DNA of 64,000 nucleotides, taken from a virus (taxonomy: Duplodnaviria > Caudoviricetes). A model generated the notes under the pieces. The model worked only from the letters and a program-made list of their open reading frames with translations, did no database searches and was not told the origin of the DNA. A program made the translations under genes and the position numbers. The DNA is taken from the IMG/VR virus record IMGVR_UViG_3300017814_000114, positions 28,052-92,051 of that record, one strand, 5' to 3'. Positions 3,232 to 62,695 of this stretch are shown one piece after another. The stretch's first letter is position 1. Every line of letters starts with the position of its first letter.

Positions 3232-3285
3232 GAGAGTGTAATTAACACATCGATTTAATTAAGCTCTTTACCGCAATATCAAAAA

Positions 3286-3316
3286 AGGAACATCGCACGT
3301 CGATTGTTCCTCTTTT
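3286..3316. terminator. Bidirectional terminator hairpin, repeated at 43299..43331
   Basis: aggaacatcg/cgattgttcct stem with A-run before and T-rich tail after, between convergent genes. Confidence 0.7.
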
Positions 3317-3341: not shown

Positions 3342-4532
3342 TTATTTTTTTATATTATTTTTCATATATGCATTGCATATCTTTATCGCCTCTCTCATTT
3401 CTTTTACTTCTTCTACTTTTCTCTCTATTTTAGTTTCATTTTCTTTAGAAATTTCAAGGGCTTTTTTTATAGCGCTTATCAGTTTTTTGAGTTCTTCTTC
3501 ATCCAAAGAAATTCTTTTAACATCCCAGCTCATTTTATTTGTCATCTTAGTTGCCATGTTAATTATCTCCTGATGATTACTATACAACAAATCCGCTTTT
3601 GCTAATACCTCTTTTATTTCATTAAAATGCTCAATTGGGCAGCCTTCATATTTTATAGAATCAATATCACGAATATAATTATTTTGCTCTTCTATGAGAG
3701 TATAAATTTTTTGAATATCTCCTTGATAAAGTCGACTATATTTATAGCCAATCTTAATCGATATAAATTCTTCGTAAACAAAATTTACATCGATTTCTTC
3801 ATTTATTAACACTTTATCTATCAATCTGTCAATTGAACTAATTAATTTTCGCAACGGATTACCTATAATTGCTATTAGTATGTATACAATAGCCATTATC
3901 CCCGAAATCACCAAAGAAAATCTAATACTCAACATATAACCCTCAGTACGACTAAAATCTAAAATTCCACAAAGTAGCATCAAAGAAGCATACAACAAAT
4001 AAGGCCAGTTTTTTACATATCCAGCCTCTTGTTTAAATTTATGCCTACAATACATTTCCATGCCTTTTAAAGTGATATAACCAGAAAATGCAAAAGATAT
4101 TATAAAATTAAAAATAAGCGAACTTTCATGTAATGAAGTTGATTTAATATCTAATATTTCTAGCAATGGTCTTAGTAATAGATTTGGCCATATATATGAA
4201 ACAAATAGAAGAGTTGGTATTATGATATCAACTATACCTAAAACTTGTCCAGATGATTTTACAAACCGATACGGATAATATTCATAGTTCTTTTTTTTAT
4301 AAAAATCTTTAAATAATAAAAGGCTAAGCAACATCGTACAAAAGCTTCTTGAAAATAAAAAGATCTCTTGTGGGTTTTTCGTTAACTTATTATTAAATAA
4401 ATCAATTAGTATCCATAATAAAGTAGCTATTGTCCCAATCAAGGCCCATATAGACCATCCGAAGTCTTTATTTTTCTCTGAGACTCTTTGTCTTTCAGAA
4501 TATAAAATATTTAGAAGTTCATCCTTTTCCAT
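3342..4532 (-). CDS. Multi-pass membrane protein with C-terminal coiled coil
   Basis: About six hydrophobic segments in the N-terminal half, charged helical C-terminus; own TATCTTTG box on the minus strand at 4548..4555. Confidence 0.75.
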   Translation of the reverse strand: MEKDELLNILYSERQRVSEKNKDFGWSIWALIGTIATLLWILIDLFNNKLTKNPQEIFLFSRSFCTMLLSLLLFKDFYKKKNYEYYPYRFVKSSGQVLGIVDIIIPTLLFVSYIWPNLLLRPLLEILDIKSTSLHESSLIFNFIISFAFSGYITLKGMEMYCRHKFKQEAGYVKNWPYLLYASLMLLCGILDFSRTEGYMLSIRFSLVISGIMAIVYILIAIIGNPLRKLISSIDRLIDKVLINEEIDVNFVYEEFISIKIGYKYSRLYQGDIQKIYTLIEEQNNYIRDIDSIKYEGCPIEHFNEIKEVLAKADLLYSNHQEIINMATKMTNKMSWDVKRISLDEEELKKLISAIKKALEISKENETKIERKVEEVKEMREAIKICNAYMKNNIKK

Positions 4533-4692: not shown

Positions 4693-4725
4693 TTTTTGAA
4701 AAGAAATAATTTTCCTCTACATTTG
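4693..4725 (+). promoter_or_regulatory. Housekeeping promoter of the pentapeptide-FRG operon, copy 1
   Basis: TTTG (-33) and TACATTTG (-7); nearly identical copy at 43369..43401. Confidence 0.8.
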
Positions 4726-4742
4726 ACTTCAAATTTCAATAC

Positions 4743-5807
4743 ATGAAAACAAAGTTTACCATCCCATCTAAATTTAGACCATCATTTAAAGGAAAGGTTT
4801 ATATCATTATAATTCTTTTTTTCAGCCCCTTTATATGCGTCTTTATTAATTATAGTACATCATTATATCTTGGTGACCTATACACTTTCGGGATACTAGA
4901 TCGAAAAGATTTCTTCACGGTATGGATAGCTTTATTTGGAGCAATAGGTATTGCAATTAATATATACCAAAATCAAAAGAGGACGGTTAACCAAGACCGA
5001 CAATTAGAGAATCAAAACAAACAATTACAAAACCAAGAAGAACAACTCAAAGAGCAAGAGAAGCAAATTGAACTACAAAGTAAATCGCAACGTGATAGTA
5101 GATTTTCTAAAGGAATAGAATTATTGGGCAATGACAACGAATCGGCTCGAGCTGGAGCTGCTTATAGCTTATATTTTTTAGCGAAAGATTATCCAGATGA
5201 ATTTTCAAAACCAGTATTTGAGATACTATGTTCCCACATCAGAACTCTCACCACATCCGAAGAGTATTTAAAGAAACATCCAACAGTATCGAATGAGGTA
5301 CAAACAATATTAGACTTACTATTTAAAAATCAATCATTATTAGATTGGGAATCAGAAGAAAACTTTGATGAAGAAAGAATAAGAGACACATTATTTTCTA
5401 AGTTTTCTGCGAATCTTCAACATTCAAATTTACAAGGAGCTGATTTAATGACAGCAAATTTATACAATGCAAAATTATTCCGCACTAACTTAGCAGGAGC
5501 AGAACTTATTGGAGCGTATTTGGAAATGGCCGTTTTATCTAAGACTATATTTAGCGGGGCATCATCTTTGGCTATAGCTAATTTAAAAGGAGCCTATTTA
5601 GGATCTATTAATTTAAGGGGGGTTAATTTGGAAGGAGCTATTTTGGAAGGAGCAACCTTAATTCATTTAAAAGAGGTAGATTTATCATTAGTTGATCTGG
5701 AAGGAGTAATTATCAGTTCCAGTATGAGACCATCCCTTGAACAAAGTAGCATCGATTTATCTGGCGTTATTTGGATTGATGACGAAGAACGAAAAAAGAA
5801 TAATTAA
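4743..5807 (+). CDS. Membrane-anchored pentapeptide-repeat protein, copy 1
   Basis: Two N-terminal TM segments, Q-rich heptads, RFSKGIELLG helical region, C-terminal A(N/D)Lxx pentapeptides. Confidence 0.88.
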   Translation: MKTKFTIPSKFRPSFKGKVYIIIILFFSPFICVFINYSTSLYLGDLYTFGILDRKDFFTVWIALFGAIGIAINIYQNQKRTVNQDRQLENQNKQLQNQEEQLKEQEKQIELQSKSQRDSRFSKGIELLGNDNESARAGAAYSLYFLAKDYPDEFSKPVFEILCSHIRTLTTSEEYLKKHPTVSNEVQTILDLLFKNQSLLDWESEENFDEERIRDTLFSKFSANLQHSNLQGADLMTANLYNAKLFRTNLAGAELIGAYLEMAVLSKTIFSGASSLAIANLKGAYLGSINLRGVNLEGAILEGATLIHLKEVDLSLVDLEGVIISSSMRPSLEQSSIDLSGVIWIDDEERKKNN

Positions 5808-5852
5808 TAAAGCAAATAGCTATAATTTCACTTATACTATAAACACATTATC

Positions 5853-6779
5853 ATGGATGATATATTAAAAGAAGTTCATTGTACAGATGCTAAAGATTTT
5901 ATTTCAAAGTTTTCGTATGGAGGTGAATATTTTCATTTAAGAACTGACAATTTCATTTTCAGAGGTGAACCTTCAGATCAATATTCCCTCATACCAAGTT
6001 CTTTGCGAGAAGAGAATCGAACAAAAATCGAGGAAATAATAAGGAATCTCGCTCCTGAATTCTCAAAAGACAATTTTGATTTATCACAAGAATATAATTG
6101 TAATCAAATTACTTCAGAATATGCGCTGCTCAACGTATTTTTCCAAAAATGTGATTACAACGGTTTATACATTCCTGAGATAAACGATCTTAGGCTTTTA
6201 AGAGGACACTACACTTATTTAGCAACAGAAATGGAGAATATAGATGTCTGGCTACCACTTAAATATATTGAACTCGCAGGTTTAGCTCAACATTATGGAA
6301 TATATACAAGACTGCTTGATTGGACTCAAGATCTTAATGTCGCTTTATATTTTGCAGTATCTGGCTACATGCTAAATAAAACTACCGAGAATCCAGATAA
6401 CCATCCTAAAAATATAGTAATATGGGCATTAAATACAGAGATTGTAGTAAATAACAAATCCGATATGCCGGGATTAAAAATTACTGTCCCAAAATATAAT
6501 AGTAATCCTAATTTATGTGCACAAAAAGGAGTTTTTACCTTGTGGCAAACACATAAAAATAACAAGAATCTTACTGATAGAGCCCCTTTAAATAAGTTGA
6601 TCGAAGAAAATCCTAAGCTTTTAGGAAATGTAAAGAGCGGTAATCCGTTATATAAGATATATATTCCAACCCAAGATTACCAAGGACTAAAAACTCATTT
6701 AGAGACATCAGGTTATGATTCTTCTAGATTATTTCCTGGATATAGAGGCGTAGCCAAAAGCCTTTTAAGAAATATTTAA
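5853..6779 (+). CDS. FRG-domain protein, copy 1
   Basis: FIFRGE and LAQHYG..TRLLDWT motifs, N...Q.GVF, terminal LFPG. Confidence 0.9.
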   Translation: MDDILKEVHCTDAKDFISKFSYGGEYFHLRTDNFIFRGEPSDQYSLIPSSLREENRTKIEEIIRNLAPEFSKDNFDLSQEYNCNQITSEYALLNVFFQKCDYNGLYIPEINDLRLLRGHYTYLATEMENIDVWLPLKYIELAGLAQHYGIYTRLLDWTQDLNVALYFAVSGYMLNKTTENPDNHPKNIVIWALNTEIVVNNKSDMPGLKITVPKYNSNPNLCAQKGVFTLWQTHKNNKNLTDRAPLNKLIEENPKLLGNVKSGNPLYKIYIPTQDYQGLKTHLETSGYDSSRLFPGYRGVAKSLLRNI

Positions 6780-6815
6780 ACTGAATATATTTAATCAAAT
6801 TATAAATGACTAATC

Positions 6816-7844
6816 ATGAAAAATGTTGGCATAGAATTAGTAAATCCACAGAAAGGATATGTTGCATTACCCTATACAGATGAACAACTATCGCAATTCA
6901 TTAAAAGTTTATTGGGTACTCCTCAAACAATCTCTAAAAAAATTGAAGGCGTTTTTGTTATACAACTAAGTGACATACAAAGTTTTAATGATTTAATTTG
7001 CCAAAGAGTCGCACAACAAAATCAGAGTAAACTACTTGAAGTAAAATCAACAATCTATTTTTCAGACAAATCAAATATAACACTAAACAGTTATGATGAT
7101 TTAATTAGTTACTACGAGATAAAACCTCTATTATCAATTGGAATAAGAATAACATGGAGTTTTCTAATTAATTTTCCAGATAAAGAAACTCCTGAACGAC
7201 AAGAAATAGAATTATTTTATTGTGCTAACAAAAGGAAGCTCTTGACAAATTCAGATGTTAGCAGTGAAAGCTACTTTAATATTGAAATTAGACATACACA
7301 AAGGACATGGGGTGTTGATATTGAGAATATTATTGAAGACCAGATAGATTCTATAAAACAAAAAATATCTAAATTTAGATTTTTTGTTAAAAGAAATTCA
7401 TCAGAAATAGCGTTCTTATTAGTAATGTTCATTTTAATCATATTTTTTCAAGGATTCTATACAGCAAAAAATAAATACATCACTACACAAAAGGAAGGAC
7501 TTTACTATTATATTGATCACAACAAAGACATTGGAAAAAAAATAGATTACACAATGAAAGAGATAATAATAAACAAAAAGCTAGAGAACAATTATCTAGA
7601 CAACATATACATAGTCTTAACCATACCAATTCTTCTAGCCATCGGATTATGGATTAAGGTAATGGCTTCAAGAATGCCAAAAAGTTTTCTAATATTCAGC
7701 CGAAAAAGTTATGACGAATATAATGACTATAAGAAAGTTAAAAATAGAGATTGGATAATGTTTTGGATATCTATTATAGTTAGCATACTAGCTGGAATTT
7801 TTTCTAATTATCTATATAGTTTCATGATAAACCTATTCAACTAA
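6816..7844 (+). CDS. Hypothetical membrane protein (soluble N-domain plus about 3 C-terminal TM helices)
   Basis: Hydrophobic segments IAFLLVMFILIIFF, IYIVLTIPILLAIGLWI, WIMFWISIIVSILAGIF. Confidence 0.75.
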   Translation: MKNVGIELVNPQKGYVALPYTDEQLSQFIKSLLGTPQTISKKIEGVFVIQLSDIQSFNDLICQRVAQQNQSKLLEVKSTIYFSDKSNITLNSYDDLISYYEIKPLLSIGIRITWSFLINFPDKETPERQEIELFYCANKRKLLTNSDVSSESYFNIEIRHTQRTWGVDIENIIEDQIDSIKQKISKFRFFVKRNSSEIAFLLVMFILIIFFQGFYTAKNKYITTQKEGLYYYIDHNKDIGKKIDYTMKEIIINKKLENNYLDNIYIVLTIPILLAIGLWIKVMASRMPKSFLIFSRKSYDEYNDYKKVKNRDWIMFWISIIVSILAGIFSNYLYSFMINLFN

Positions 7845-7911
7845 TTCACAATAAACAGCATCAATATTACTTTTGTAATAGTTATCAACTATTTTCTAAT
7901 TTTTCTCCCCT

Positions 7912-8155
7912 TTTCCTTTGCTGTCTCAAATATTCTTTCGATATTTGCCCCAGCTAAACAGTAGTGAAATGTCTTTCACTTCGCAGAGCGCGGTTAATGC
8001 TCAACGATTTACGTCGGGCTTTTTTTATGCCCCACATACATATAAGCCATGCGGCTGTCTTCCGGGTATTTTTTTCTCTTCGGAGTGAGATTTACTACTG
8101 TTTAGCGACACGGAACGGCAGCCGTTTTTCTGTCGAAACGCTAAACAGTAGTAAT
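7912..8155 (+). ncRNA. c4/CI-like antisense RNA leader, prophage A
   Basis: gctaaacagtagt at 7953 and 8140, exact complement at 8094..8106; scaffold conserved with 46884..47124. Confidence 0.65.
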
Positions 8156-9146: not shown

Positions 9147-12100
9147 ATGGCTATTACACAAGAGGCAATTATCAGAATGTCCTTAAACGGACAACAACCT
9201 GAAGAGGAGCTGAAGAAACTGACCGAAGCACTGAAAAAGTATGAGACGGCAAGAGACAAAGCAATCGGCACAGGCGACAAAAAGACCGCACAAGAATATC
9301 AAAAGAAGATAAACGGCGTTAACAAAGAGATTCAACTGATTCAGCGGAATTGGGTGAATGTCAACCAAGTACTCAACAACTTATCCCTTACCGGAACAAA
9401 AGATCTTCACAAAACACTCAAGGCAATTAATAATGAGCTCAATTCGGGCAGAGTACAGAGAGGCTCTGAAGAATGGGACGCCTATCAGAAGAAACTCAGT
9501 ATGGTCAATGCGGAGCTTCGAAAGATTAGAGAGGAAGGCGGACAGGTTTCGAAAAATTCTTTCGAAAGGATAACCGATTTTGCCAATCGGATTTGGGGAG
9601 CTTATGTCATCGGGACAAGCGTTTATCAAGGAGTAAACTCATGGATAAACGACAAAGTCAACGATTTTGCCAAAATGGAAGAAGCCGAAAGCCAGGTAGT
9701 CAAATACACCAACCTGACTAAAAAAGAAGTAGAGGACGTAAACGAAGATTTTAAGAAACTGGACACCCGTACCGCTCGAGAACAGCTGAACAGCCTTGCC
9801 GGTGATGCCGGTAAATTGGGCATTGACGGCAAGAAGGGCATCGAAGATTTTGTCGATGCCGGTAACCAAATCAATATTGCACTGGGAGAGGACTTGGGAG
9901 CGGATGCTATCAAGAATATCGGTAAGCTCGCCATGATATTCGGCGAGGATCAAAGGCTTGGACTTAAAAAGGCGATGCTTTCCACAGGTTCCGCCATCAA
10001 CTACATCGGACAAAGTTCTTCAGCTGCCGAGCCCTATCTCGCCGACTTCCTCGGCGAAATGGGTAGTGTTGGCCATCAGGCAAAAATATCACAGGCGAAC
10101 TTGCTCGGCTATGCGTCTGTTCTTGACCAGAACAAAGTCGAAGCCTCTGTGGCATCTACCGCTTTTCAACAGCTTACTTTAAAGATGTTTCAAGAGCCTG
10201 CCAAATATGCCAAGATTGCGGGCGTGAGCCTCAAAGAATTTAAAACGCTGTTACAGGTCGATTCCAACAAAGCGATGCTTAGCTTCCTTTCCGGACTGTC
10301 CAGAGTAGGAGACCTTACCAAAGCGGCTCCCGTTATCAAATCGCTCGGACTTGACGGTCAAAAAGCGGCACAGGTCCTTACTGCCCTCTCGGGAAACATC
10401 GGTTTGATTGAACAGGAACAACGCAAGGCAAACCAGGCTTATAACGAAGCGACTAGCATCACCAAGGAATATAACGTACAGAACAATACCGCACAGGCTC
10501 GACTGGAAAAGATGCAAAAGCGGGCTCACGACTTGGCGGTCGAACTCGGCGGCAAATTATATCCGGGCATGGAATACACGTTTAGAATCGGAAGCAAGCT
10601 CGTCAAATTATCATCCGGAGCAATTGATTTTATCAAGGAGAACAGGGTTGAACTTGCCGCCTTGACACTTGCTTTAAGTGCCTACTATATCAAGGCGAAG
10701 TATACGACTGTCGTCAAATCGCTAAGCAATAACCTTCATAAATTAGCCGCGACATACAAAACGATCGATGCGTTGGCCACCGCTAAAATGGCACGCAACC
10801 AAGGGGCGTACAATGCCATACTCAAAGAGAGTGAAATACTTCAGCAAATGGGGAAAAAATCACTCGTCAACTACCAGGCAGCAATGTACCTTGTCATTGC
10901 CGCCAAAAACATTTTAATAGGTAAATTCAAAGAAGCCAGACTAGCCCTCAATGCCTTCGGCACCGCTATCAAAACGAATCCCTGGGGAATTGCGATAGCG
11001 GCGATTGCCGCCATCGGTTACGGTCTGTACAAATGGTATCAGAACCAAAAAGAAGCGAACCGGGCGACAGCCGAATTTTACAGTGCGGTATCCAAAGAAC
11101 GGGGCGAGCTGACGAATCTTTATAATCAGCTGGGAGCGACAAATCAAAAATCCAAAATGAGGGCTGAACTTATCAAAGAATTTAATGATAAATTCGGCAA
11201 GTACCTCACAAACCTACTGACCGAAAAGAGTACCATCGCCGATATCAAGAACGCCTACGAACAGGCAACCGTGGCAATGAACGACTACTATGCCCGACAG
11301 GTACTCGACAAGGAGACCGGCGATATCATGTCCAAACATGTCAAAGATAACGGTGAGCTGCTGCAAGGGGCAGTCGGTGGATTGACAAAAGCGACGGACA
11401 ACCAAAAAGCGAAAGCATCTCAAATCATCGTCGACGCAATCAACAGTGCCATTCAGAAATCTCCGAATATTGGCAAAGAAGGGTTGATGAAATCGATTAA
11501 CGGACAAGTGCAAAAAGGACTGGGGCTGGATTATTCGGGCTTTTGGAACTTAATGTATGGAAACTCTGCCGGACGGGATTGGCATGGCAACATCAGTGAA
11601 CTCATTGACAATATGCAGAAGGATAATCAAAAAGTCATTAACGTTCGCAATCAACTTCGCCCATGGATTAAACATGACAGACCGGTTGCACAACAGGAGC
11701 AAGTGCAAAACAACACGAATCTCGGAGGCACACCCGATACCGGAACATCACTCACCGAAGCGCAACAGAAAAAGATAATGGAGAGAAAGCTGAAACTCAT
11801 AGAAGCATCCAACGACAAAGAAAAAATAATGAATACCGCCCTATACGCTGCCGGCAAAGTATCAAAAGAGGAATATGACCTGTTCATGGAAGATAGCGAC
11901 GAGAAGCTGATAGATGCCAAGATGAAACTCTACCGCAAAGACTCAAAAGAGTACAATGACCTGCTTTTGCAGAAAACCCAAATGCAAGCGAAACGCAATG
12001 AGAGAGACAAAGCAGGCGATATCGAAACCGTCGACCGACAGACAGAACAACAAAAAGAAATGTATCTTAATATGTATACCCAACAGCTGATTGACAAAAA

Positions 12101-13511
12101 AGGATTCGATACGGCAATGGGAGAATTGGAATATGACACTTTGGAAAAGAAGCGAAACCTTTATATGAAAGGTTCAAAAGAATATAACGACTACCAGGCA
12201 CAAATGGATAGCTGGAGCCATAACGACAGATTGCAAAAACTGCAAGAGTTCGAGCAACGTCTCCAACAGATAAAAGAGTATTCCGAAAAGAAGACGGGTG
12301 ATGAACTGATGGCCGAAGATATAGCTTTCTGGGATGACTATTATAGCAAGATAGAAGGCAAAGAAAAAGAGCATCAGGAAATAATCGCCGCTATCCGCGC
12401 CCACTACAAACGACAGAAGGGCGAACAAGAAGTCGGGTTCGATGGAAACGCCAGGAAAGGAGCACAGCGCGGGCAGGATATATATAACCAGGCCAAAGGC
12501 GAAGTAGGAAATCAGGATAATCCGGGAAAAGACAGTATCTGGGATACTCTCTTTGGCAATGACGCCAAACTTCATTCAAAGGTAAAAGAGAAGATGAAGA
12601 ACATGGAGGGACAGATGGGCGTGAGTCATCAGGATGTATTAAACGGTATGGCCGCCGCCGATGAAGATTACTACAACCAACTTGCCGAGAAAGCCGAAAA
12701 AGCTTACCAGGTTGTAGGAGGGTTGATGTCCGCTTACTCTTCCTACGTCTCGGCAAGCCGTGATGTCGAGGTTGCTAAGACGACTAAAAATTACGACAAT
12801 CAAATAAAAGCGGCAGGCGAAAACACCACCAAAGGCAAGAAACTTGAAGAGCAGAAACAAAAAGAAATCGCCAAAATCAAAAACAAGTACAACAAAAAAT
12901 CCACCAACATACAAATAGCCCAGGCGATAGCGGAAACGGCAGTGTCAGCATTAAGAGCTTATGCCGCCGGTTGGAGTATGGGAGCTGCGGGACCGGTTTT
13001 AGCTCCGATATTCGCAGGTATTGCAACAGCTTCCGGCATGATACAGGTAGCAGCCATCAAGAAACAGGCACAGGCCCAGGACGAGGGTTATTACTCGGGC
13101 GGTTTCACCCCTTCGGACGCCAACAACAGAAAACCCGTCGGTACCGTACATGCCAATGAGTTTATCGCCAATCATCAAGCCACCGGCAACCCGAATCTTT
13201 TACCGGTACTTCGTCTGATCGACCATGCGCAAAAAAATAATACGGTCGGTTCTCTCACCGCTCAGGATGTGTCTAACACCATCGGCGGAGGAACATCATC
13301 GCCCATCAGCACAGGCAACTCGCCCGTCGACGCAATCAACATCAACTTCGACGCGGTCGCCGTCAGCCTGCAACACAACGCCGAAGTGATCGAAAGACTT
13401 CAGCAACAGCTCGAAGGCGGTATCGAATCGTATGTCACCATTGACGGCGAACATGGGTTCGAACGGCAATACAACCATTACAAGAAACTACAATCCAATA
13501 AATCACGCTGA
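9147..13511 (+). CDS. Tail tape measure protein, prophage A
   Basis: 1454 aa, mostly helical; TP901-type core, NPWG TM motif, GY.SGGFT...G.VH.NEF C-terminus. Confidence 0.92.
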   Translation: MAITQEAIIRMSLNGQQPEEELKKLTEALKKYETARDKAIGTGDKKTAQEYQKKINGVNKEIQLIQRNWVNVNQVLNNLSLTGTKDLHKTLKAINNELNSGRVQRGSEEWDAYQKKLSMVNAELRKIREEGGQVSKNSFERITDFANRIWGAYVIGTSVYQGVNSWINDKVNDFAKMEEAESQVVKYTNLTKKEVEDVNEDFKKLDTRTAREQLNSLAGDAGKLGIDGKKGIEDFVDAGNQINIALGEDLGADAIKNIGKLAMIFGEDQRLGLKKAMLSTGSAINYIGQSSSAAEPYLADFLGEMGSVGHQAKISQANLLGYASVLDQNKVEASVASTAFQQLTLKMFQEPAKYAKIAGVSLKEFKTLLQVDSNKAMLSFLSGLSRVGDLTKAAPVIKSLGLDGQKAAQVLTALSGNIGLIEQEQRKANQAYNEATSITKEYNVQNNTAQARLEKMQKRAHDLAVELGGKLYPGMEYTFRIGSKLVKLSSGAIDFIKENRVELAALTLALSAYYIKAKYTTVVKSLSNNLHKLAATYKTIDALATAKMARNQGAYNAILKESEILQQMGKKSLVNYQAAMYLVIAAKNILIGKFKEARLALNAFGTAIKTNPWGIAIAAIAAIGYGLYKWYQNQKEANRATAEFYSAVSKERGELTNLYNQLGATNQKSKMRAELIKEFNDKFGKYLTNLLTEKSTIADIKNAYEQATVAMNDYYARQVLDKETGDIMSKHVKDNGELLQGAVGGLTKATDNQKAKASQIIVDAINSAIQKSPNIGKEGLMKSINGQVQKGLGLDYSGFWNLMYGNSAGRDWHGNISELIDNMQKDNQKVINVRNQLRPWIKHDRPVAQQEQVQNNTNLGGTPDTGTSLTEAQQKKIMERKLKLIEASNDKEKIMNTALYAAGKVSKEEYDLFMEDSDEKLIDAKMKLYRKDSKEYNDLLLQKTQMQAKRNERDKAGDIETVDRQTEQQKEMYLNMYTQQLIDKKGFDTAMGELEYDTLEKKRNLYMKGSKEYNDYQAQMDSWSHNDRLQKLQEFEQRLQQIKEYSEKKTGDELMAEDIAFWDDYYSKIEGKEKEHQEIIAAIRAHYKRQKGEQEVGFDGNARKGAQRGQDIYNQAKGEVGNQDNPGKDSIWDTLFGNDAKLHSKVKEKMKNMEGQMGVSHQDVLNGMAAADEDYYNQLAEKAEKAYQVVGGLMSAYSSYVSASRDVEVAKTTKNYDNQIKAAGENTTKGKKLEEQKQKEIAKIKNKYNKKSTNIQIAQAIAETAVSALRAYAAGWSMGAAGPVLAPIFAGIATASGMIQVAAIKKQAQAQDEGYYSGGFTPSDANNRKPVGTVHANEFIANHQATGNPNLLPVLRLIDHAQKNNTVGSLTAQDVSNTIGGGTSSPISTGNSPVDAININFDAVAVSLQHNAEVIERLQQQLEGGIESYVTIDGEHGFERQYNHYKKLQSNKSR

Positions 13512-41003: not shown

Positions 41004-41175
41004 CTGACCTTAAAAAAATATGGTGTTGTCATAATGCGCGAAAATTAAAATTACCCATACTAAAGATTTTGCTAAAACTCAGTTTTTTGGTATTTTATTC
41101 GTAATTTTCTCTTATATTATTTTCTATAATACAGAAAATAATATATTTTTGCAAAGTAATTATATGCATATGAGG

Positions 41176-42180
41176 ATGAACAGATTAGAATTGTATAAAC
41201 AATTAGAACATTATCGCAATTCCAAATTGTTAGTTTATGTTACAGGTTCAAGACAAGGACTTGAAACACAGATTGCTAATGACATTCTTCCAAAAGTATC
41301 AGAGCATTTAGATAAAATAGGCGATACAGACAAAATTTCCTTATATCTATTTACAAATGGAGGGAACACACTAACGGCTTGGAGTTTGGTAAACTTGATT
41401 AAAAGCTTCTGCAAAAATTTTGAAGTAATTATACCATCTAATTGTTTTAGCTCAGGGACATTAATTTGTTTGGGATCAAATAATATTGTTATGACAAAAC
41501 AAGCTATGTTGGGACCAATTGACCCAAGTGTAAATGGCCCATTAAATCCAGCGATACCAGGATTACAACAAGACCCTAATGCAAAAGTTCCCGTAAGTGT
41601 AGAACATGTAAACGCTTACATTAATATGGCTAAAAAGGATTTTGGAATTACGAATCAGAAATATATGACAGAGATACTGCTTAAATTATCTGAAAAAATT
41701 CATCCATTAACATTAGGACAGGTTTATAAATCAAAAAGTCAGATACAAATGTTAGCAAGGAAATTGATGAAAGGACAGCATCTTAAACACGATAAAGAAA
41801 ATGCTATAATTAAATTCCTCTGTAGTGAATCTGGTAGCCATGATTATTCGATACGAAGAAAAGAAGCAAGTGAAAATTTGGGATTGCCGATAGAGAAACC
41901 AACAATGGAAGAATATACCGTTATTAAAGCGATATATGACGATATTTCCAAGGAATTAGAGTTGGATAATCCCTATAATCCTAATATCTATTTAAGTAAT
42001 CAAGATAATGCCCATTATTCATTTAGGCGAGGATTAATTGAATCTTTAGAAGGAGGAACTGATGTTTTTGTTAGTGAAGGGACATTATCAAAGACAACTA
42101 TCCAACTTCAGCCAGGGATTGTTCAACAAATGGCATTGAATGATAATAGAACTTTTGAAGGTTGGCGACATGAAAATTAA
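41176..42180 (+). CDS. ClpP-fold serine protease (SDH family)
   Basis: TNGG, FSSGTLI.LG, LGPIDP, SHDY motifs; the TTG start at 41149 lies inside the TATTTTTG promoter box. Confidence 0.85.
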   Translation: MNRLELYKQLEHYRNSKLLVYVTGSRQGLETQIANDILPKVSEHLDKIGDTDKISLYLFTNGGNTLTAWSLVNLIKSFCKNFEVIIPSNCFSSGTLICLGSNNIVMTKQAMLGPIDPSVNGPLNPAIPGLQQDPNAKVPVSVEHVNAYINMAKKDFGITNQKYMTEILLKLSEKIHPLTLGQVYKSKSQIQMLARKLMKGQHLKHDKENAIIKFLCSESGSHDYSIRRKEASENLGLPIEKPTMEEYTVIKAIYDDISKELELDNPYNPNIYLSNQDNAHYSFRRGLIESLEGGTDVFVSEGTLSKTTIQLQPGIVQQMALNDNRTFEGWRHEN

Positions 42181-42352
42181 TACTATGGCTTTAAGTAAAA
42201 TATCAAGCACTGGATATAATCCAAAAACTGAATTAAGAACAAATTCTTATAGTGCAAAATTGTTCAGTGAAAATTCAGCAGTAAAGAATACAACTGCAGA
42301 GTTTATAAAAAATAAGACTGTAATCATTTCTAATGAAATAAGAAAGTTTTGA
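42170..42352 (+). CDS. 60-aa S/T/N/K-rich peptide
   Basis: ATG overlaps the protease stop region. Confidence 0.5.
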   Translation: MKINTMALSKISSTGYNPKTELRTNSYSAKLFSENSAVKNTTAEFIKNKTVIISNEIRKF

Positions 42353-42362
42353 GTCACATATT

Positions 42363-42599
42363 ATGCTTGAACGAGAATTTAAATATTACCTGAAGCATCA
42401 AAATGAGTTGCTTAAAAAGTATAACAATAGATATATTGTTATTGTAGGTGACAATGTTATAGGTGATTATGACAATGCATTAGATGCTTTTGAAGAAGCA
42501 AGTAAAAAGTACGAAGCGGGTAAATTTCTTATTCAAGAATGTACGGAAGGAAAAGGAGCTTACACTCAGACGTTTCATTCAAGAGTGAGTTTTGCGTAA
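42363..42599 (+). CDS. DUF5678-like small protein
   Basis: F.YY..HQ.ELLKKY..RYIVI....VIG.YD...A. Confidence 0.7.
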   Translation: MLEREFKYYLKHQNELLKKYNNRYIVIVGDNVIGDYDNALDAFEEASKKYEAGKFLIQECTEGKGAYTQTFHSRVSFA

Positions 42600-43159
42600 T
42601 GAAAATAAGTTCATTTACCCAAATATGTTCTAAAGAAGAACGTTGTTTAACTACTCTTTGTGGTGCTAGTGAAGCCTTTGACCCACAAAAGAGAGATAAA
42701 AATTTTCCCCATATTACTCAATATAAATCAATATGGGATACTGGTGCGATGGGAATTGTTGTAACCAAAAACGTAATAGAAAGACTAAAGCTACAACCTA
42801 TTCGCCCTATCCATGTTGAAACAGCCTCTGGTCCATATGATACTTTCGCATATTTGATTAATTTGTATCTTCCCAATAATATCTTGATACCTGGAGTTTG
42901 GGTTTCAGAAGGGAAAATTGTAGATGCTGACATCCTTATCGGTATGGATGTAATATCCAGAGGTGACTTTGCCATCTCATCTTCAGATAAAAGTACGAAA
43001 TTTACGTTTCAAATGCCATCAAACCACAATACTGATTATGTTTATGAAGCTCAACTAATAGATAAATACCAAAAAATTCATGTTGAATGGATAAAACATG
43101 GCAATAATAGATGTCCTTGTGGTAGTGGAAAACAATGGAATCAGTGTCATGGTAAATAA
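42599..43159 (+). CDS. Retropepsin-like aspartic protease with C-terminal SEC-C motif
   Basis: WDTGA, DILIGMD, CPCGSGK.W..CHG; start at the TAATG overlap (42599). Confidence 0.88.
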   Translation: MKISSFTQICSKEERCLTTLCGASEAFDPQKRDKNFPHITQYKSIWDTGAMGIVVTKNVIERLKLQPIRPIHVETASGPYDTFAYLINLYLPNNILIPGVWVSEGKIVDADILIGMDVISRGDFAISSSDKSTKFTFQMPSNHNTDYVYEAQLIDKYQKIHVEWIKHGNNRCPCGSGKQWNQCHGK

Positions 43160-43298
43160 AATCATTTATTAAGTAAAAGTTAATTACGACACCCTATTTT
43201 TTTAGGATTATAAGGGGGGAGTATTGTCATATATAGGCACCTATAATTATGAATATAGTATGTCGATCTAATTAAGCTATTTTAAGCCGTTTGAGAAG

Positions 43299-43331
43299 AG
43301 GAACATCGTACGCCGATTGTTCCTCTTCTTT
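43299..43331 (+). terminator. Terminator hairpin (copy of 3286..3316)
   Basis: aggaacatcg/cgattgttcct stem. Confidence 0.7.
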
Positions 43332-43368: not shown

Positions 43369-43401
43369 TTTTTGATAAGAAATAAATTTCCTCTACATTT
43401 G
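43369..43401 (+). promoter_or_regulatory. Housekeeping promoter of the pentapeptide-FRG operon, copy 2
   Basis: TTTG and TACATTTG boxes. Confidence 0.8.
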
Positions 43402-43418
43402 ACTTCAAATTTCAATAC

Positions 43419-44345
43419 ATGAAAACAAAGTTTACCATTCCATTTAAATTAAAGCCATCATTTAAAGAATGGGTTTGTATTATTGTTGTCCTTTTTTTTA
43501 GCCCTTTTATAGGTGTCTTTATTAATTATAGCACCTCATTATATCTCGGCGACCTATACACTTTCGGGATATCCGATCGAAAGGATTTCTTCACAGTGTG
43601 GATCGCTTTATTTGGTGCTATAGGCATTGCATTCAATATATACCAGAACCAAAAGAGGACGAAGAACCAAGAAAAACAACTTGAAAAACAACAGGCACAA
43701 ATTGAGCTACAAAGCAAGTCGCAACGTGATAGCAGATTTTCGAAAGGCATCGAATTATTAGGTAATGACAATGAATCAGCCAGAACCGGAGCGGCTTATA
43801 GTTTATGCTTTCTAGCAAAAGATTTTCCAGATGAATTTTCGAAACCCGTATTTGACATTCTATGTTCTCATATCAGGACGCTTACTACTTCCGATGATTA
43901 TTTAGAAAAACATCCAACAGTGTCAAATGAAGTACAAACAATATTAAATTTATTGTTTAAAACTACAGACGGCAGTAATATAACTCCATTTTCTACTTAT
44001 AAAGCAAATTTGAGTAGAGCACATTTAGAAGGAGCGGATTTGGAAAAGGCTCATTTAGAAAAAGCTTATTTGTTCGATGTCAATTTAGAAAGTGCTATTT
44101 TGCATGATGCTAATTTAGAGAAGGCTCATTTATTCCGAGCTCATTTGGAAAATGCTTTTTTAGAAAAAGCCCATTTAGAAAAGGCCTTTTTGCAAGAGGC
44201 TGTTTTAGAAGAGGCTGTTTTGGAAGGAGCATTTATCTATTCCTCCCAAAAAACAGTTCTTAAACAAAGTGGAGCCGATTTATCTGGCGTCGAATGGGTT
44301 AATAACGAAGAACAAACAATTATAACAGATAAAGATTCCCTGTGA
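43419..44345 (+). CDS. Membrane-anchored pentapeptide-repeat protein, copy 2
   Basis: Paralog of 4743..5807; AHLEK-type repeats. Confidence 0.88.
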   Translation: MKTKFTIPFKLKPSFKEWVCIIVVLFFSPFIGVFINYSTSLYLGDLYTFGISDRKDFFTVWIALFGAIGIAFNIYQNQKRTKNQEKQLEKQQAQIELQSKSQRDSRFSKGIELLGNDNESARTGAAYSLCFLAKDFPDEFSKPVFDILCSHIRTLTTSDDYLEKHPTVSNEVQTILNLLFKTTDGSNITPFSTYKANLSRAHLEGADLEKAHLEKAYLFDVNLESAILHDANLEKAHLFRAHLENAFLEKAHLEKAFLQEAVLEEAVLEGAFIYSSQKTVLKQSGADLSGVEWVNNEEQTIITDKDSL

Positions 44346-44416
44346 TAAACAAAAAAGGAGTAGTCACTTAAAACGGCTTATTATATTAATTCCACTTATA
44401 CTATAAACACATTATC

Positions 44417-45337
44417 ATGGATGATATATTAAAAGAAATTCATTGTACCGATGCTAAAGATTTTATTTCAAAGTTTTCGTATGGAGGTGAATATTTTCAT
44501 TTACGAAATGAAAATTTTATTTTCAGAGGAGAACCTTCGGATCAATATTCTCTCATACCAAGTTCTTTGCGAGAAAAAAATCGGACAAACATTGAGAGAA
44601 TAATAAGGAACTTCATTCCTGAATTTTCAAAAGACATTTTTGACTTGTCCATAGAATATCATCAAATTACTTCAGAATATATACTACTTAGCATGTTTTT
44701 TAGAGAATGTGATCGCAATGGTTTATATATTCCAGACATAACCGATCTTAGATCTTTAGCAGCGGTCAAGATACCTTTACAAGAAGAGCTAGATAATATA
44801 GAGAAGTGGCTACCACTTAATTATATTGAACTTGCAGGCTTAGCTCAACATTATGGAATATATACAAGATTGCTTGATTGGAGTTTCGATTTTAATGTTG
44901 CACTATATTTTGCCGTATCTGGTTACATGCTAAATAAAACAGATAACCATCCTAAAAACATAGTAATATGGGCATTAAATACAGAGATTGTAGTAAATAA
45001 CAAATTCGATATGACGGGATTAAAAATTACTGTCCCAAAATATAATAGTAATCCTAATTTATGTGCACAAAAAGGAGTTTTCACCTTGTGGCAAATAACA
45101 AATACAGGAAGGGATTTTGAAATGCATACTAATAGAGCCCCTTTAGATCAGTTGATTAAAAAGAATTCTGAACTTATAATAACAAATACAAAGAATGGCA
45201 ATCCACTATATAAAATATATATCCCAGTCGAGAATTATCACGAGCTAAAGACTTATTTAGAGACATCAGGTTATGATTCAGCCAGGCTATTCCCTGGATA
45301 TGGGGGTGCTGCCAAATATATTTTAAATAATCTTTAA
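44417..45337 (+). CDS. FRG-domain protein, copy 2
   Basis: FIFRGE, LAQHYGIYTRLLDWS. Confidence 0.9.
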   Translation: MDDILKEIHCTDAKDFISKFSYGGEYFHLRNENFIFRGEPSDQYSLIPSSLREKNRTNIERIIRNFIPEFSKDIFDLSIEYHQITSEYILLSMFFRECDRNGLYIPDITDLRSLAAVKIPLQEELDNIEKWLPLNYIELAGLAQHYGIYTRLLDWSFDFNVALYFAVSGYMLNKTDNHPKNIVIWALNTEIVVNNKFDMTGLKITVPKYNSNPNLCAQKGVFTLWQITNTGRDFEMHTNRAPLDQLIKKNSELIITNTKNGNPLYKIYIPVENYHELKTYLETSGYDSARLFPGYGGAAKYILNNL

Positions 45338-45366
45338 GCATAAACATTTTAATCAATTGTAAAACT

Positions 45367-46869
45367 ATGAATGAGAATCTTTCCAAAACAAATACTTATG
45401 CGTTACTAATCGGTAATAATAACTATCTTGGAAATGAGTTAAACAATGCCGTAAACGATGCAGAAGGTATTAAAGAAATGTTTGATAAGCTAGGATATAA
45501 AACAGATATAAGAACAAATTTTAAGCGTGATGATATTGCAGCAATCAAAGAAAATTTAAAAGAAAACATAAAGAATATTGAAATAGGCATTTTCTATTTT
45601 GCTGGACATGCCTTTGAAATAGACAACAAAAACTATATTGCACCTATTGATTGCCCCTTTTCTAGTAAAGAAAAATCTAATTGTACCTTTTATTGCATGA
45701 CATTGGATGAAATAATCGAGATATTTGATAAATCCACTTGCCAAATAAAAATCATCATACTTGATGCCTGTCGAAATAATCCATTTAAAGGGACTAGAGG
45801 TATAGGAGCATGTACTCTTGCACCAATCAAAGTAACGAAAGGATACATTATCGCATATTCCACATCACCTGGTGAGACGGCATTGGATAATTCTTCGGGC
45901 CCAACCAATCATGGTGTATACGCAAGTGCTTTTATTTCTCACTTGGAAGAGAAACATTTACCTGTGGAGAATTTTTTTAAAAAAGTGAGAGAAACAGTGT
46001 ATTCATTAACTGAAGGTAAACAGGTTTCATGGGAGCATACTTCTTTGATAGGAGATTTTTGCTTTAATAAAGGCGGAATCTCTTATAAAGATCTTCCCTA
46101 TAGCGAAGAGGCTATAAAGGATTACAAATACAAAAATCACGGTTCTCCATTTGATGATATTATTAATGGACTAAAATCTTATGATTGGGGAATACAAAAA
46201 GAAGCTATAACAAAAATTGCAAAGAATATTAATGCCGATATTAACGAACAGTTTGTTTTAGGTAGAAATATTTTGCAAGCATCTGATGGAAATTCCTATG
46301 AGGCACAAATATTCATAGATAAATTAGATAACAACATCAAGTCTTATACAACACCACAAGGAGACAATCACATATTAAACGGAATACTATATGAAATATA
46401 TTTCAATTCTCGTGGGGAATTTAGAACACTTGACAATGCCAAATGTCAAGGAGACATTGATAAAATATTCTCATTGCAATATAATCCAAATTACAAAAAA
46501 TCATTTCTTTTTATATCGGACCTCTTAGCTGAATATCAAGACTCTTTATACTATGTTCCAAATGGCGCTAGTAATAATATAATATCAATTACAGTAACTT
46601 TTAGCGATGAAAAAGGAACAGATATTATTGGCAATTCAGAAGTTCATAATGTAATTAATAAAATTTCGGTAGGAGCACAAGACATTACAAAAAAGATGAG
46701 AAGTAAATATACGATTTGCAATGCATCTAAAGAGGATTTGACATTGAATATTGCTAAATGTTTGGTAGCTTATTCGCAGGACATAGCATATAATCCTGAA
46801 ATACCTGATAAAAATTTATATTTAAATCTTTATTCTGAGGTAATTGATTGGAGTACATTATTAAAATAG
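45367..46869 (+). CDS. Caspase-family (C14) protease with uncharacterised C-terminal domain
   Basis: ALLIGN..Y, L.NAVNDA, FAGHA (His), LDACR (Cys), YSTSPG..A.D. Confidence 0.92.
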   Translation: MNENLSKTNTYALLIGNNNYLGNELNNAVNDAEGIKEMFDKLGYKTDIRTNFKRDDIAAIKENLKENIKNIEIGIFYFAGHAFEIDNKNYIAPIDCPFSSKEKSNCTFYCMTLDEIIEIFDKSTCQIKIIILDACRNNPFKGTRGIGACTLAPIKVTKGYIIAYSTSPGETALDNSSGPTNHGVYASAFISHLEEKHLPVENFFKKVRETVYSLTEGKQVSWEHTSLIGDFCFNKGGISYKDLPYSEEAIKDYKYKNHGSPFDDIINGLKSYDWGIQKEAITKIAKNINADINEQFVLGRNILQASDGNSYEAQIFIDKLDNNIKSYTTPQGDNHILNGILYEIYFNSRGEFRTLDNAKCQGDIDKIFSLQYNPNYKKSFLFISDLLAEYQDSLYYVPNGASNNIISITVTFSDEKGTDIIGNSEVHNVINKISVGAQDITKKMRSKYTICNASKEDLTLNIAKCLVAYSQDIAYNPEIPDKNLYLNLYSEVIDWSTLLK

Positions 46870-46883
46870 AAAAATCTCGCCTT

Positions 46884-47124
46884 TTCCTTTGCTATCTCAA
46901 ATATTCTTTCGATATTTGTCCCAGTCAAACGTCCACGAACGATTTCGTGTCGCAGAGCGCGGTTAATGCTCAACATACAACGTCGGGCTTTTTTTATGCC
47001 CGGCCGTAAAATATGGCGGCTGCTTATTCCTTTCATTTTTTTGTGCTCCGGCATGAATCTGTGGACGTTTGACGACGGGGAATGGCAGCCGTTTTTCTGT
47101 CTAAAATGTCAAACGCCCACAGTT
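46884..47124 (+). ncRNA. c4/CI-like antisense RNA leader, prophage B
   Basis: gtcaaacgtccac at 46924, complement gtggacgtttgac at 47061, gtcaaacgcccac at 47108. Confidence 0.65.
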
Positions 47125-61331: not shown

Positions 61332-61805
61332 ATGAAAATGTTATTTATTAGTTATTTGTTATCGGGAGATAATGCAAAAATAGCAATGTGGTTGCTTGTT
61401 GCTGCAGCCTTAGCTTTTCCCCCAAATATTGCAAGTTTTATCGACCTTGTTACTGGCATAAAAGCGAGTAAGAGGCTTGGCAATTTCAAGACAACCTCAT
61501 TCGGGTTGAGACAAACGATTAGTAAAGATAGAGACTACATGACTTACTTCTTCCTCATGTTCCTTATCGATTGCTGTCTCTCGTTCTTCATTGACTTTCC
61601 AGTCATGTGTATTCTTTGTGCCATTGCGGAAACGGTTATAGAGGTTATATCTATCAGGGAAAACATGCACAAAGGACGTACAGAAACACATGATCCGATT
61701 GCGTTGATGCAAAGCATTGCCACTGCTTACGGTCAAGACAAAGCCGATAAGATTTTCAATATCATCAAACAACAGGAGGAAAAAAACAATGAGAATAACG
61801 GTTGA
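61332..61805 (+). CDS. Holin
   Basis: DLVTGI.AS......TS.GLR.T..K, three TM segments, E..SI.EN; overlaps the endolysin start. Confidence 0.82.
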   Translation: MKMLFISYLLSGDNAKIAMWLLVAAALAFPPNIASFIDLVTGIKASKRLGNFKTTSFGLRQTISKDRDYMTYFFLMFLIDCCLSFFIDFPVMCILCAIAETVIEVISIRENMHKGRTETHDPIALMQSIATAYGQDKADKIFNIIKQQEEKNNENNG

Positions 61806-62199
61806 CAGGCTTTGGAAGAAAGAGACGTATACCATCGGTAAAATGGCCATCGATGGAAAATACTTCTGCAACACACTTGAAGATAAAGAGAGAGACCTCA
61901 CCAAAGAATCCAAAGTTTTCGGCAGGACGGCCATTCCTGCCAGAACTTACCGGATAACGATGACTTACTCGCCGAAGTTCAAGCGAGTGATGCCACTCGT
62001 TAACGGCGTTCCGCAGTTCGAAGCGATCCGCATTCATCCGGGTAACAAGGCTGAAGATACGGAAGGTTGTATCTTGGTTGGTGAGAATACCATAATAGGG
62101 GGACTGACAAATTCACGTAAGTGGTCTGATGAACTGAACAAACGCATTCAGGATGCCTTAGCTAGTAAAGAAGATGTTTTGATAACCATTAAAGATTGA
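61789..62199 (+). CDS. Endolysin, DUF5675 family
   Basis: Near-identical to 54..467; ATG at 61789 by alignment. Confidence 0.85.
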   Translation: MRITVDRLWKKETYTIGKMAIDGKYFCNTLEDKERDLTKESKVFGRTAIPARTYRITMTYSPKFKRVMPLVNGVPQFEAIRIHPGNKAEDTEGCILVGENTIIGGLTNSRKWSDELNKRIQDALASKEDVLITIKD

Positions 62200-62203
62200 T
62201 GAT

Positions 62204-62623
62204 ATGAAACGAAAACAGACGTATATGTACACTATCATCCTATTTATGATATTGCTGACTTCATGCCGATCGGTCAAGTATGTGCCGGTTGAAAGTGTAC
62301 GGACAGAAACGAAGTATATCGATAAGCTGGTGCAAAAGCACGATTCGATCTATTTGCACGATTCGATTTCTTCGTATATCAAAGGGGACACGGTATTTCT
62401 AAATAAATACCGGACGAAGTACGTGAACAAGTACATCTTTGGCACAGACAGTATCTATTTTAATAAGACCGATTCCGTTCGTATCCCTTATCTTGTAGAG
62501 AAGCAACTCACCAAGTGGCAAAAGGTAGAAATGAATACCGGCAGAATAACGATTATTGCATTGATTGTGTTGGCTCTTTCATCAGGAATTTATATATTTG
62601 TGAATTATAAAGTGAGAAAGTAA
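62204..62623 (+). CDS. Spanin-like lipoprotein
   Basis: Near-identical to 681..1100. Confidence 0.75.
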   Translation: MKRKQTYMYTIILFMILLTSCRSVKYVPVESVRTETKYIDKLVQKHDSIYLHDSISSYIKGDTVFLNKYRTKYVNKYIFGTDSIYFNKTDSVRIPYLVEKQLTKWQKVEMNTGRITIIALIVLALSSGIYIFVNYKVRK

Positions 62624-62655
62624 ACCGAGAGGTTGAAGAGATAATATCAGATTGA

Positions 62656-62695
62656 GAAGAGGCGTGCGATAAACCGTACGTCTCTTCTATCTTAT
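62656..62695 (+). terminator. Terminator after the lysis genes
   Basis: gaagaggcgtgcg/cgtacgtctcttc stem. Confidence 0.7.

Follow-up and report, generated by a model that had tools for sequence, protein, structure and literature searches.

Do a membrane pentapeptide-repeat protein (PRP), an FRG-domain protein and a variable third gene that stand side by side form a multi-gene anti-phage system, or have genes that act on their own been stacked at one site? The question is raised by a stretch of 64,000 nucleotides of viral DNA (positions 28,052 to 92,051 of the IMG/VR record IMGVR_UViG_3300017814_000114; here called the window), in which PRP and FRG genes occur twice in the same order, each time followed by a different third gene. 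A first-pass annotation of this DNA had proposed a PRP and FRG core with an exchangeable effector slot. Our analysis points with moderate confidence to a different explanation, namely a prophage cargo (moron) hotspot that holds independently acting, probably anti-phage genes, which have come under a single Bacteroides-type promoter by fusion and have been exchanged between co-resident prophages. We regard the genes as a stack of separate candidate anti-phage genes rather than as a three-part system, because elsewhere each of them is usually found without the others.

The window is part of a 92-kb provirus record and derives from one Bacteroidales genome. It contains two prophages, A (approximately 1-16.8 kb) and B (16.8-64 kb), each with an integrase and a tape-measure gene. 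The two tape measures gave no tblastn match to each other, in agreement with the first-pass annotation. Segments shared by the prophages were located by repeat finding and blastn. Cassettes A (4693-6806) and B (43369-45363) have the promoter, the PRP gene, the spacer and the FRG gene in common at 82-87% DNA identity: 86.5% for 4693-4996 versus 43369-43672, 82% for 5031-5328 versus 43665-43962 and 81.6% over 1002 nt for 5823-6806 versus 44387-45363. The 3′ half of the PRP gene, which encodes the repeat part (approximately 5329-5735 versus 43963-44258), could not be aligned as DNA, and conservation is limited to the first 195 or so codons; with this exception the duplication described earlier was recovered in full. 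In the spacer between the FRG gene and the third gene the likeness runs through TTTAATCAA.T..TAAA and breaks off at the start codon of the third gene, where it had been placed before. Transmembrane (TM) prediction, Pfam and the residues themselves likewise confirmed the earlier reading of the third genes as a protein with three TM helices in cassette A and an intact caspase (His in FAGH, Cys in DAC) in cassette B. Elsewhere the prophages share only a block of approximately 1.1 kb (1-1134 versus 61736-62657) and parts of the integrase. The cassettes have a GC content of 30-32%, compared with 46% in the tape-measure gene. An identical cassette is present in wastewater metagenome samples, in contigs of four runs that are short, low-depth pieces and uninformative on transcripts.

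The distribution of the genes outside the window speaks against an obligate association. IMG/VR yielded 177 FRG loci, and none of the best 80 of these had a match to the PRP model within 4 kb. The FRG proteins in these loci are mostly bare domains of 290-350 amino acids, and at least 20 of the best 80 are encoded by solitary genes with opposite-strand genes on both flanks. A survey of 401 Bacteroidales species genomes detected FRG in 31, a caspase domain in 47 and the PRP family in 2; no genome carried both FRG and the PRP family, no FRG gene adjoined a caspase gene, and a gene of this PRP family was found within 1.5 kb of FRG in 0 of 30 fetched loci. The nearest FRG relatives outside the clade of the window adjoin SIR2 and M78-HTH genes, or AbiH, in other defence islands. 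The PRP family is represented by approximately 35 distinct loci, which were collected from species genomes, IMG/VR and metagenomes and by looking up exact proteins; scanning viral contigs with single proteins gave no matches, and alignment-based queries were required. Most of the PRP genes are lone and convergent with a phage tail block, and three PRP-bearing genomes contain no FRG gene anywhere. Only one of these loci outside the window, a 3.4-kb contig (L016), repeats the order PRP, FRG and 342-amino-acid gene. Loci L021, L022 and L023 have an intact PRP gene that is preceded by an FRG gene split over three frames, so that about 4 of the 35 PRP loci contain FRG, as one lineage and one pseudogene case. 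Other neighbours of PRP relatives are a restriction-modification pair with putAbiC, a methyltransferase and DUF2971 genes. Relatives of the third gene of cassette A stand alone between housekeeping genes, and the three closest relatives of the caspase (P0224-P0226) are likewise solitary, on conjugative or mobilisable elements that carry genes for relaxase, MobC, DUF3408 and DUF4133/4134. The first-pass annotation had itself named beforehand a lack of co-occurrence of the PRP and FRG genes as refuting its proposal, and co-occurrence was largely lacking. A common core with an exchangeable slot is thus not supported, since relatives of PRP, FRG, the third gene and the caspase mostly occur without each other.

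Both cassettes lie in a site with recognizable borders (Table 1). The left boundary elements of the two prophages are 80% identical and end in a terminator-like hairpin. This hairpin element, GAGGAACA...TGTTCCTC, recurs in L021, where it flanks the PRP cassette left and right (5873-5912 and 7027-7072), and in L011, 3′ of the PRP gene (3773-3903). PRP cassettes are therefore bracketed by the element in unrelated contigs, one of them chromosomal, and the element may serve both as a terminator and as a recombination site for cassette exchange. The right boundary elements are 84% identical. This conserved leader of approximately 130 nt stands directly 3′ of both cassettes and 5′ of small open reading frames and the tape-measure gene.

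Promoters of Bacteroides follow the consensus TTTG-N19-TAnnTTTG. Of seven full matches in the 64 kb, two are the sites before the PRP genes, and both are kept in L016. Within each cassette there is no further TAnnTTTG on the coding strand, and in cassette A the site is the only one on the plus strand before the stop codon of the third gene. In cassettes A and B, respectively, PRP and FRG are 45 and 71 nt apart and FRG and the third gene 36 and 29 nt, and no hairpin was found between cassette genes. Scans for sigma-70-type promoters and terminators gave counts no higher than in shuffled sequence, these models not being applicable to promoters of Bacteroidota. The short spacers, the single promoter before PRP and the lack of intervening hairpins make one transcript per cassette likely. 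The site thus has what is expected of a moron hotspot: a fixed position, conserved boundaries, an atypical GC content, a promoter of its own and a content that differs between cassettes A and B, L011 and L024. The description of the cassette as promoter-bearing prophage cargo, already given in the first-pass annotation, gains support from its AT-richness, from the Bacteroides-type promoter placed before PRP only and from the presence of the same hotspot in two prophages.

Table 1. Position and main properties of the features of the two prophage cassettes (positions are those of the window).
Feature	Positions	Strand	Properties
PRP1 (cassette A)	4743..5807	+	354 aa; Pfam PF00805, E 5e-19
PRP2 (cassette B)	43419..44345	+	308 aa; differs from its paralogue PRP1 in the repeat domain; PF00805, E 2e-20
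FRG1 (cassette A)	5853..6779	+	308 aa; bare FRG domain, PF08867, E 2e-16
FRG2 (cassette B)	44417..45337	+	306 aa; paralogue of FRG1, 77% identical; PF08867, E 5e-16
Third gene, cassette A	6816..7844	+	342 aa; conserved alpha/beta N-terminal domain of ~190 aa and three TM helices
Third gene, cassette B	45367..46869	+	500 aa; caspase family, Peptidase_C14 PF00656, E 2e-32
Bacteroides-type promoter, cassette A	4695..4725	+	TTTG, 19 nt, TACATTTG; 18 nt before PRP start codon
Bacteroides-type promoter, cassette B	43371..43401	+	18 nt before PRP start codon
Left boundary element, prophage A	3250..3314	+	65 nt, ends in GC-containing terminator-like hairpin
Left boundary element, prophage B	43263..43327	+	hairpin at 43298-43325
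Right boundary, prophage A	7904..8032	+	conserved leader element before tail and tape-measure genes
Right boundary, prophage B	46875..47001	+	conserved leader element
Tape-measure gene, prophage A	9147-13511		
Tape-measure gene, prophage B	48266-52372		
Extra cargo gene, prophage A only	3342..4532	-	396 aa, about four TM helices and coiled-coil tail; between boundary hairpin and PRP promoter

The two cassettes do not share a single history. In a tree of the PRP N-terminal part the window copies are two of the eight members of a tight clade (support 98/98), in which FRG-linked and FRG-less proteins are interleaved. In this part copy A is 89% identical to the protein of L020, which has a methyltransferase neighbour, and copy B is 92% identical to that of L011, which has a gene for a TPR-DUF2971 protein and no FRG gene as its neighbour. 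The number of synonymous substitutions per site (dS) between the window copies is 1.05 for PRP versus 0.43 for FRG, and a 156-nt tract of the FRG genes (6394-6549 versus 44940-45095) is 97% identical within surroundings of approximately 82%. The difference in dS together with this tract indicates that the block is a mosaic formed by recombination or gene conversion between co-resident prophages, and the tract itself suggests recent gene conversion in FRG. The decayed FRG gene of L021 has a promoter-like site of its own and lies upstream of the PRP cassette, so that the two are separate units there. From the placement of the hairpins in L021 and L011, PRP in the relatives forms a unit complete in itself, with a promoter and the gene between two hairpins, and the PRP-FRG junction of the window looks like a derived fusion in which the intervening signals were lost. 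All cassette genes are under purifying selection.

Taken as a hotspot of single genes, the locus could work as follows. Accessory genes would be inserted at a site with the hairpin boundary element on one side and, on the other, the leader that precedes the tail and tape-measure genes, would be expressed by the lysogen and would each act alone, as anti-phage or exclusion genes. In the lineage of the window, loss of a terminator and a promoter between PRP and FRG would have placed two or three genes under the PRP promoter, and the PRP-FRG block would be present twice because co-resident prophages swap cargo by recombination at shared boundary elements. A role of the hotspot genes in anti-phage defence or exclusion is probable, given that FRG is a catalogued candidate, that PRP relatives have defence-type neighbours and that the caspase occurs on mobile elements. 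What each protein might contribute is considered below.

The PRP proteins clearly belong to the pentapeptide-repeat family, with PF00805 scores of 67.9 and 72.3 bits against a cut-off of 20.2 and tandem A(D/N)LXX repeats, and a profile search of solved structures returned PRP beta-helices. They start with a basic N-terminus and two predicted TM helices (residues 17-35 and 57-75), followed by a glutamine-rich coiled coil and a helical domain that is strongly conserved in the family alignment (RFSKGIELLGN...ILCSHIR). The C-terminal repeat domain is acidic (isoelectric point 4.9), varies in length and sequence among relatives and is predicted by the positive-inside rule to face the cytoplasm. The ratio of non-synonymous to synonymous substitutions (dN/dS) between PRP1 and PRP2 is 0.065 for residues 1-195 and 0.48-0.65 for the repeat part, a pattern that fits a fast-evolving specificity surface. 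Possibly, the hairpin of two TM helices anchors the protein in the inner membrane and a helical stalk carries the acidic beta-helix towards the cytoplasm, where it would determine the specificity of an exclusion factor or a decoy, perhaps a DNA mimic. No PADLOC model matched this phage-borne membrane PRP family. In two Bacteroidales genomes, proteins of approximately 1010 amino acids (L006 5923-8952 and L007 5878-8928) combine an N-terminus of the PRP family with 27 pentapeptide matches; two GDSL-lipase-like genes lie 3′ of each of these genes.

Membrane-anchored pentapeptide repeats have a precedent in defence. A system of P4 hotspots that has been equated with Hailong encodes a protein in which pentapeptide repeats are combined with a potassium-channel domain (PMC13586616; PMC13434031). 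HalA of Hailong, a membrane ion-channel effector with a cytoplasmic extension whose P4-hotspot homologue is said to carry the repeats, thus offers a parallel for a membrane-anchored PRP in a two-gene operon. PRP1 and PRP2 differ in that they have no ion-channel domain in Pfam and no HalA-like chain was returned by the profile search of solved structures. Their partner would be an FRG protein resembling ADP-ribosyltransferases (ARTs) and not a nucleotidyltransferase, and most PRP relatives have no partner. Having no channel-family match and a different partner, the PRP of the window was not assigned to Hailong. A conserved T-x-G between the TM helices had also led us to consider a potassium-channel-like pore, which was dropped since no channel family matched.

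The FRG proteins score 61.3 and 59.8 bits with PF08867 (cut-off 25) and match 14-15 PADLOC models of PDC-S15, with best E-values of 4e-32 and 6e-32; FRG1 also matches phrog_4962 (E 8e-45). The first-pass annotation had recognized no named system in the combination of genes. This holds for the combination when it is compared with the PADLOC models, in which the FRG protein matches PDC-S15. Its view that the members look like defence genes is supported by this match; its three-part system is not supported, as co-occurrence was largely lacking. In a family alignment of 31 sequences the FRG and QHYG motifs are invariant (R37, G38, Q146, H147, T152, R153, D156 and W157), with the core LAQHYG...TRLLDW and a late invariant Gln (AQKG), and the protein lacks a sensor domain. 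dN/dS between FRG1 and FRG2 is 0.34.

Frg has been placed in the ADP-ribosyltransferase superfamily as a predicted NADase or antiviral effector (PMC9503650; PMC12522546). No relative of FRG turned up when the sequences of solved structures were searched. With the AlphaFold model of FRG1 (predicted local distance difference test, pLDDT, 88) Foldseek returned nothing at E≤0.001; cholera toxin A1, LT and PARP1 headed the results at E 0.15 or worse. VIA-align gave weak Z scores of 3.5-4.3 to a dozen ART toxins, among them LT, PltA, scabin, pertussis toxin, TccC3, DarT and diphtheria toxin, and all of these alignments start at the FRG motif (residue 31-34). The fold comparison thus weakly favours an ART fold. 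The protein might act as a bare ART-like enzyme that on infection consumes NAD+ or ADP-ribosylates a target and so causes abortive infection. A literature search found no published experimental validation of PDC-S15 or FRG defence, and the main text of the preprint by Payne et al. (10.1101/2024.01.29.577857) mentions neither. In five IMG/VR loci (L169, L170, L177, L180 and L181) FRG is preceded, after a gap of 8-16 nt or, in L180, with a 12-nt overlap, by a same-strand gene for a protein of approximately 340 amino acids without TM helices. In this phage subgroup FRG could belong to a real two-gene operon, different from the arrangement in the window.

The third gene of cassette A had no match in Pfam, PADLOC, PHROGs or NCBIfam. 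Its family is rare: apart from the record of the gene itself, 5.8 billion proteins included only four relatives. dN/dS in comparison with the gene of L016 is 0.18. Fold searches with its model (pLDDT 73) were dominated by generic helical matches to the TM part, and look-alikes in the ESM Atlas belong to unnamed clusters. Residues 26-180 or so gave weak START/CYTH/AdoMetDC-like matches (AdoMetDC-like with Z 8.3, thiamine triphosphatase with E 3e-4, PR-10/PYL), which were too weak for a named fold to be accepted. The caspase of cassette B is a clear family member (PF00656, 113 bits against a cut-off of 21.4) with an intact dyad of His81 in YFAGH and Cys135 in LDAC, and its best solved relative is the MALT1 paracaspase (E 4e-10). 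It has 2,004 library representatives at E≤1e-30; among the best 150 of these, most are 470-510 amino acids long and aligned over approximately residues 10-400 or more, from which we conclude that this build is common. In the hotspot, the third gene of cassette A would supply a membrane protein with a ligand-binding-like N-terminal domain and that of cassette B a caspase-family protease.

Further cargo flanks the cassettes. The 396-amino-acid protein encoded upstream of cassette A had no match in Pfam, PADLOC, PHROGs or NCBIfam, and no relative of its gene was found in copy B or in any fetched locus. Upstream of cassette B, the region 41149-43159 encodes a ClpP/SDH-like serine protease (phrog_11747, E 9e-53), a 78-amino-acid open reading frame (42363-42599) and a 206-amino-acid protein with a retropepsin-like domain and an SEC-C motif. 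A protein with an SEC-C motif (Rugutis) is among the antiphage systems of lactococci (PMC11381338).

Several observations weigh against a mere stack of genes. All three known members of the FRG clade of the window (twice in the window, once in L016) sit 3′ of a PRP gene, and order, spacer and single promoter are kept in the three loci. FRG and PRP adjoin a second time, in reversed order, in L021. The cassette genes are as tightly spaced as described above, with no recognizable internal promoter or terminator. Finally, both recurrent 3′ neighbours of the tight PRP clade, FRG and the TPR-DUF2971 protein, are ART-like, for which chance is not a ready explanation, though only two or three evolutionary events are involved. 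PRP and FRG could thus form a true two-gene system in this lineage. The membrane PRP would then sense infection or restrain the enzyme, perhaps as a decoy or antitoxin that mimics DNA, FRG would act as the effector that uses NAD+, and the third gene would be independent cargo; an FRG protein without a sensor of its own would suit such a partnership. We consider this possible but unlikely. Bare FRG proteins of this size are commonly encoded by lone phage genes, neither set of FRG loci (80 and 30) had a PRP neighbour, and PRP genes are mostly alone, in genomes that may lack FRG altogether. In L021 the FRG gene has decayed while PRP is intact, with a hairpin and a promoter in between, and a hairpin also parts PRP from TPR-DUF2971 in L011 and L021. 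One fusion event may underlie all cases in which PRP is followed by FRG.

The ART-like neighbours allow a broader version of this partnership. TPR-DUF2971 genes lie 3′ of the PRP cassette in L011 (4023-6653, phage) and L021 (7190-8728, chromosome), and their products are 51-58% identical to each other. DUF2971 has been described as a DarT-like ART family (PMC12522546) and, in Aristaios of lactococcal plasmids, as a validated single-gene antiphage system (PMC11381338). In hhalign the FRG profile showed no similarity to the DUF2971 part of the L011 protein, and the link between FRG and DUF2971 comes from the literature alone. The two independent ART-like neighbours, together with the reversed FRG-PRP pair in L021, keep a functional link between PRP and ARTs alive. 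Accordingly, the membrane PRP might be a dedicated partner (sensor, tether or DNA-mimic antitoxin) of ART-like defence enzymes, of FRG in the window and L016 and of TPR-DUF2971 in L011 and L021, and in the lineage of the window the pair might also drive a swappable third effector, either a membrane protein or a caspase. Such an undescribed modular immune system of Bacteroidota prophages seems to us rather improbable.

The cargo might also have nothing to do with phage defence and bring about lysogenic conversion, with PRP altering the envelope or, in the manner of Qnr and MfpA, guarding gyrase or another host target, and FRG acting on host physiology. PRP proteins are best known for gyrase protection, the repeat part gave weak matches to Qnr and MfpA models of NCBIfam, and a Bacteroidales PRP gene conferred ciprofloxacin tolerance in an overexpression screen (PMC11300592). 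However, a membrane anchor and hypervariable repeats are a poor fit for the protector of a conserved target, the surrounding genes are of defence type throughout and lie on mobile elements, and FRG is enriched in defence contexts and phage genomes. We therefore judge this explanation to be very doubtful.

In type II Thoeris the effector is a Macro-TM protein. A three-gene signalling system of comparable design, in which FRG would make an ADP-ribose-derived signal and the swappable third gene would bind it (through the ligand-binding domain with TM helices in cassette A, or the caspase with its C-terminal domain in cassette B), could draw on the break in similarity exactly at the start of the third gene, on the cup-like alpha/beta domain with its weak START/CYTH-like matches fused to TM helices and on a review that counts Frg among signal-generating ART domains (PMC9503650), but is highly improbable and contradicted by the solitary distribution of both effector families, whose relatives occur alone with no NAD-processing gene nearby, as well as by the missing FRG-caspase adjacency in the 401 genomes, the mostly solitary FRG relatives, the weak fold matches and the mere two variants known for the slot. 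Type IV Thoeris combines a TIR protein with a caspase-like effector (10.1101/2024.10.24.620036); it differs from the window, where no cassette protein or scanned neighbour had a TIR match in Pfam. A caspase-like effector is what the two would have in common, and close relatives of the caspase of cassette B stand alone on conjugative elements.

A hotspot of single genes, which we prefer to these alternatives, also has counterparts among known systems. The FRG proteins share with PDC-S15/PF08867 the same models and the FRG and QHYG motifs, and they are prophage cargo like most members. They differ from the single-gene candidate in that the FRG gene of the window has no promoter of its own and lies 3′ of a PRP gene, whereas its relatives are commonly solitary. 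Aristaios and DarT-like ARTs are likewise ART-like single-gene defences; a DUF2971 gene is not present in the window. Defence hotspots have been described in P2 and P4 prophages and satellites (PMC13586616). Like these and the classic morons, the locus is an AT-rich, fixed swap site with conserved bounds and varied defence-type genes, in which cassettes carry their own promoter and hairpin. Unlike the P2 and P4 hotspots, it belongs to a siphovirus-like prophage of Bacteroidota, uses a Bacteroides-type promoter and has several cassettes fused in one apparent transcription unit. We thus class the locus with the known prophage defence and moron hotspots, as a new example that includes a PDC-S15 member. 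It also holds an uncatalogued phage-borne family of membrane PRPs and, in the adjacency of PRP and ART-like genes, offers a modest lead.

For Bacteroidales prophages, the locus provides a documented site at which accessory genes are swapped, bounded by a recognizable hairpin and leader element, and it shows that cargo moves between unrelated prophages residing in the same genome. It further points to three candidate anti-phage families in gut Bacteroidota: the membrane PRP, the bare FRG clade and a caspase of approximately 490 amino acids that has a C-terminal domain and is carried on conjugative elements. To our knowledge, the number of defence systems so far tried out in Bacteroides hosts is small, which makes PRP, FRG and the caspase cheap single-gene candidates. 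If the adjacency of PRP and ART-like genes proved functional, it would give pentapeptide-repeat proteins their first defined role beside NAD-using immune enzymes.

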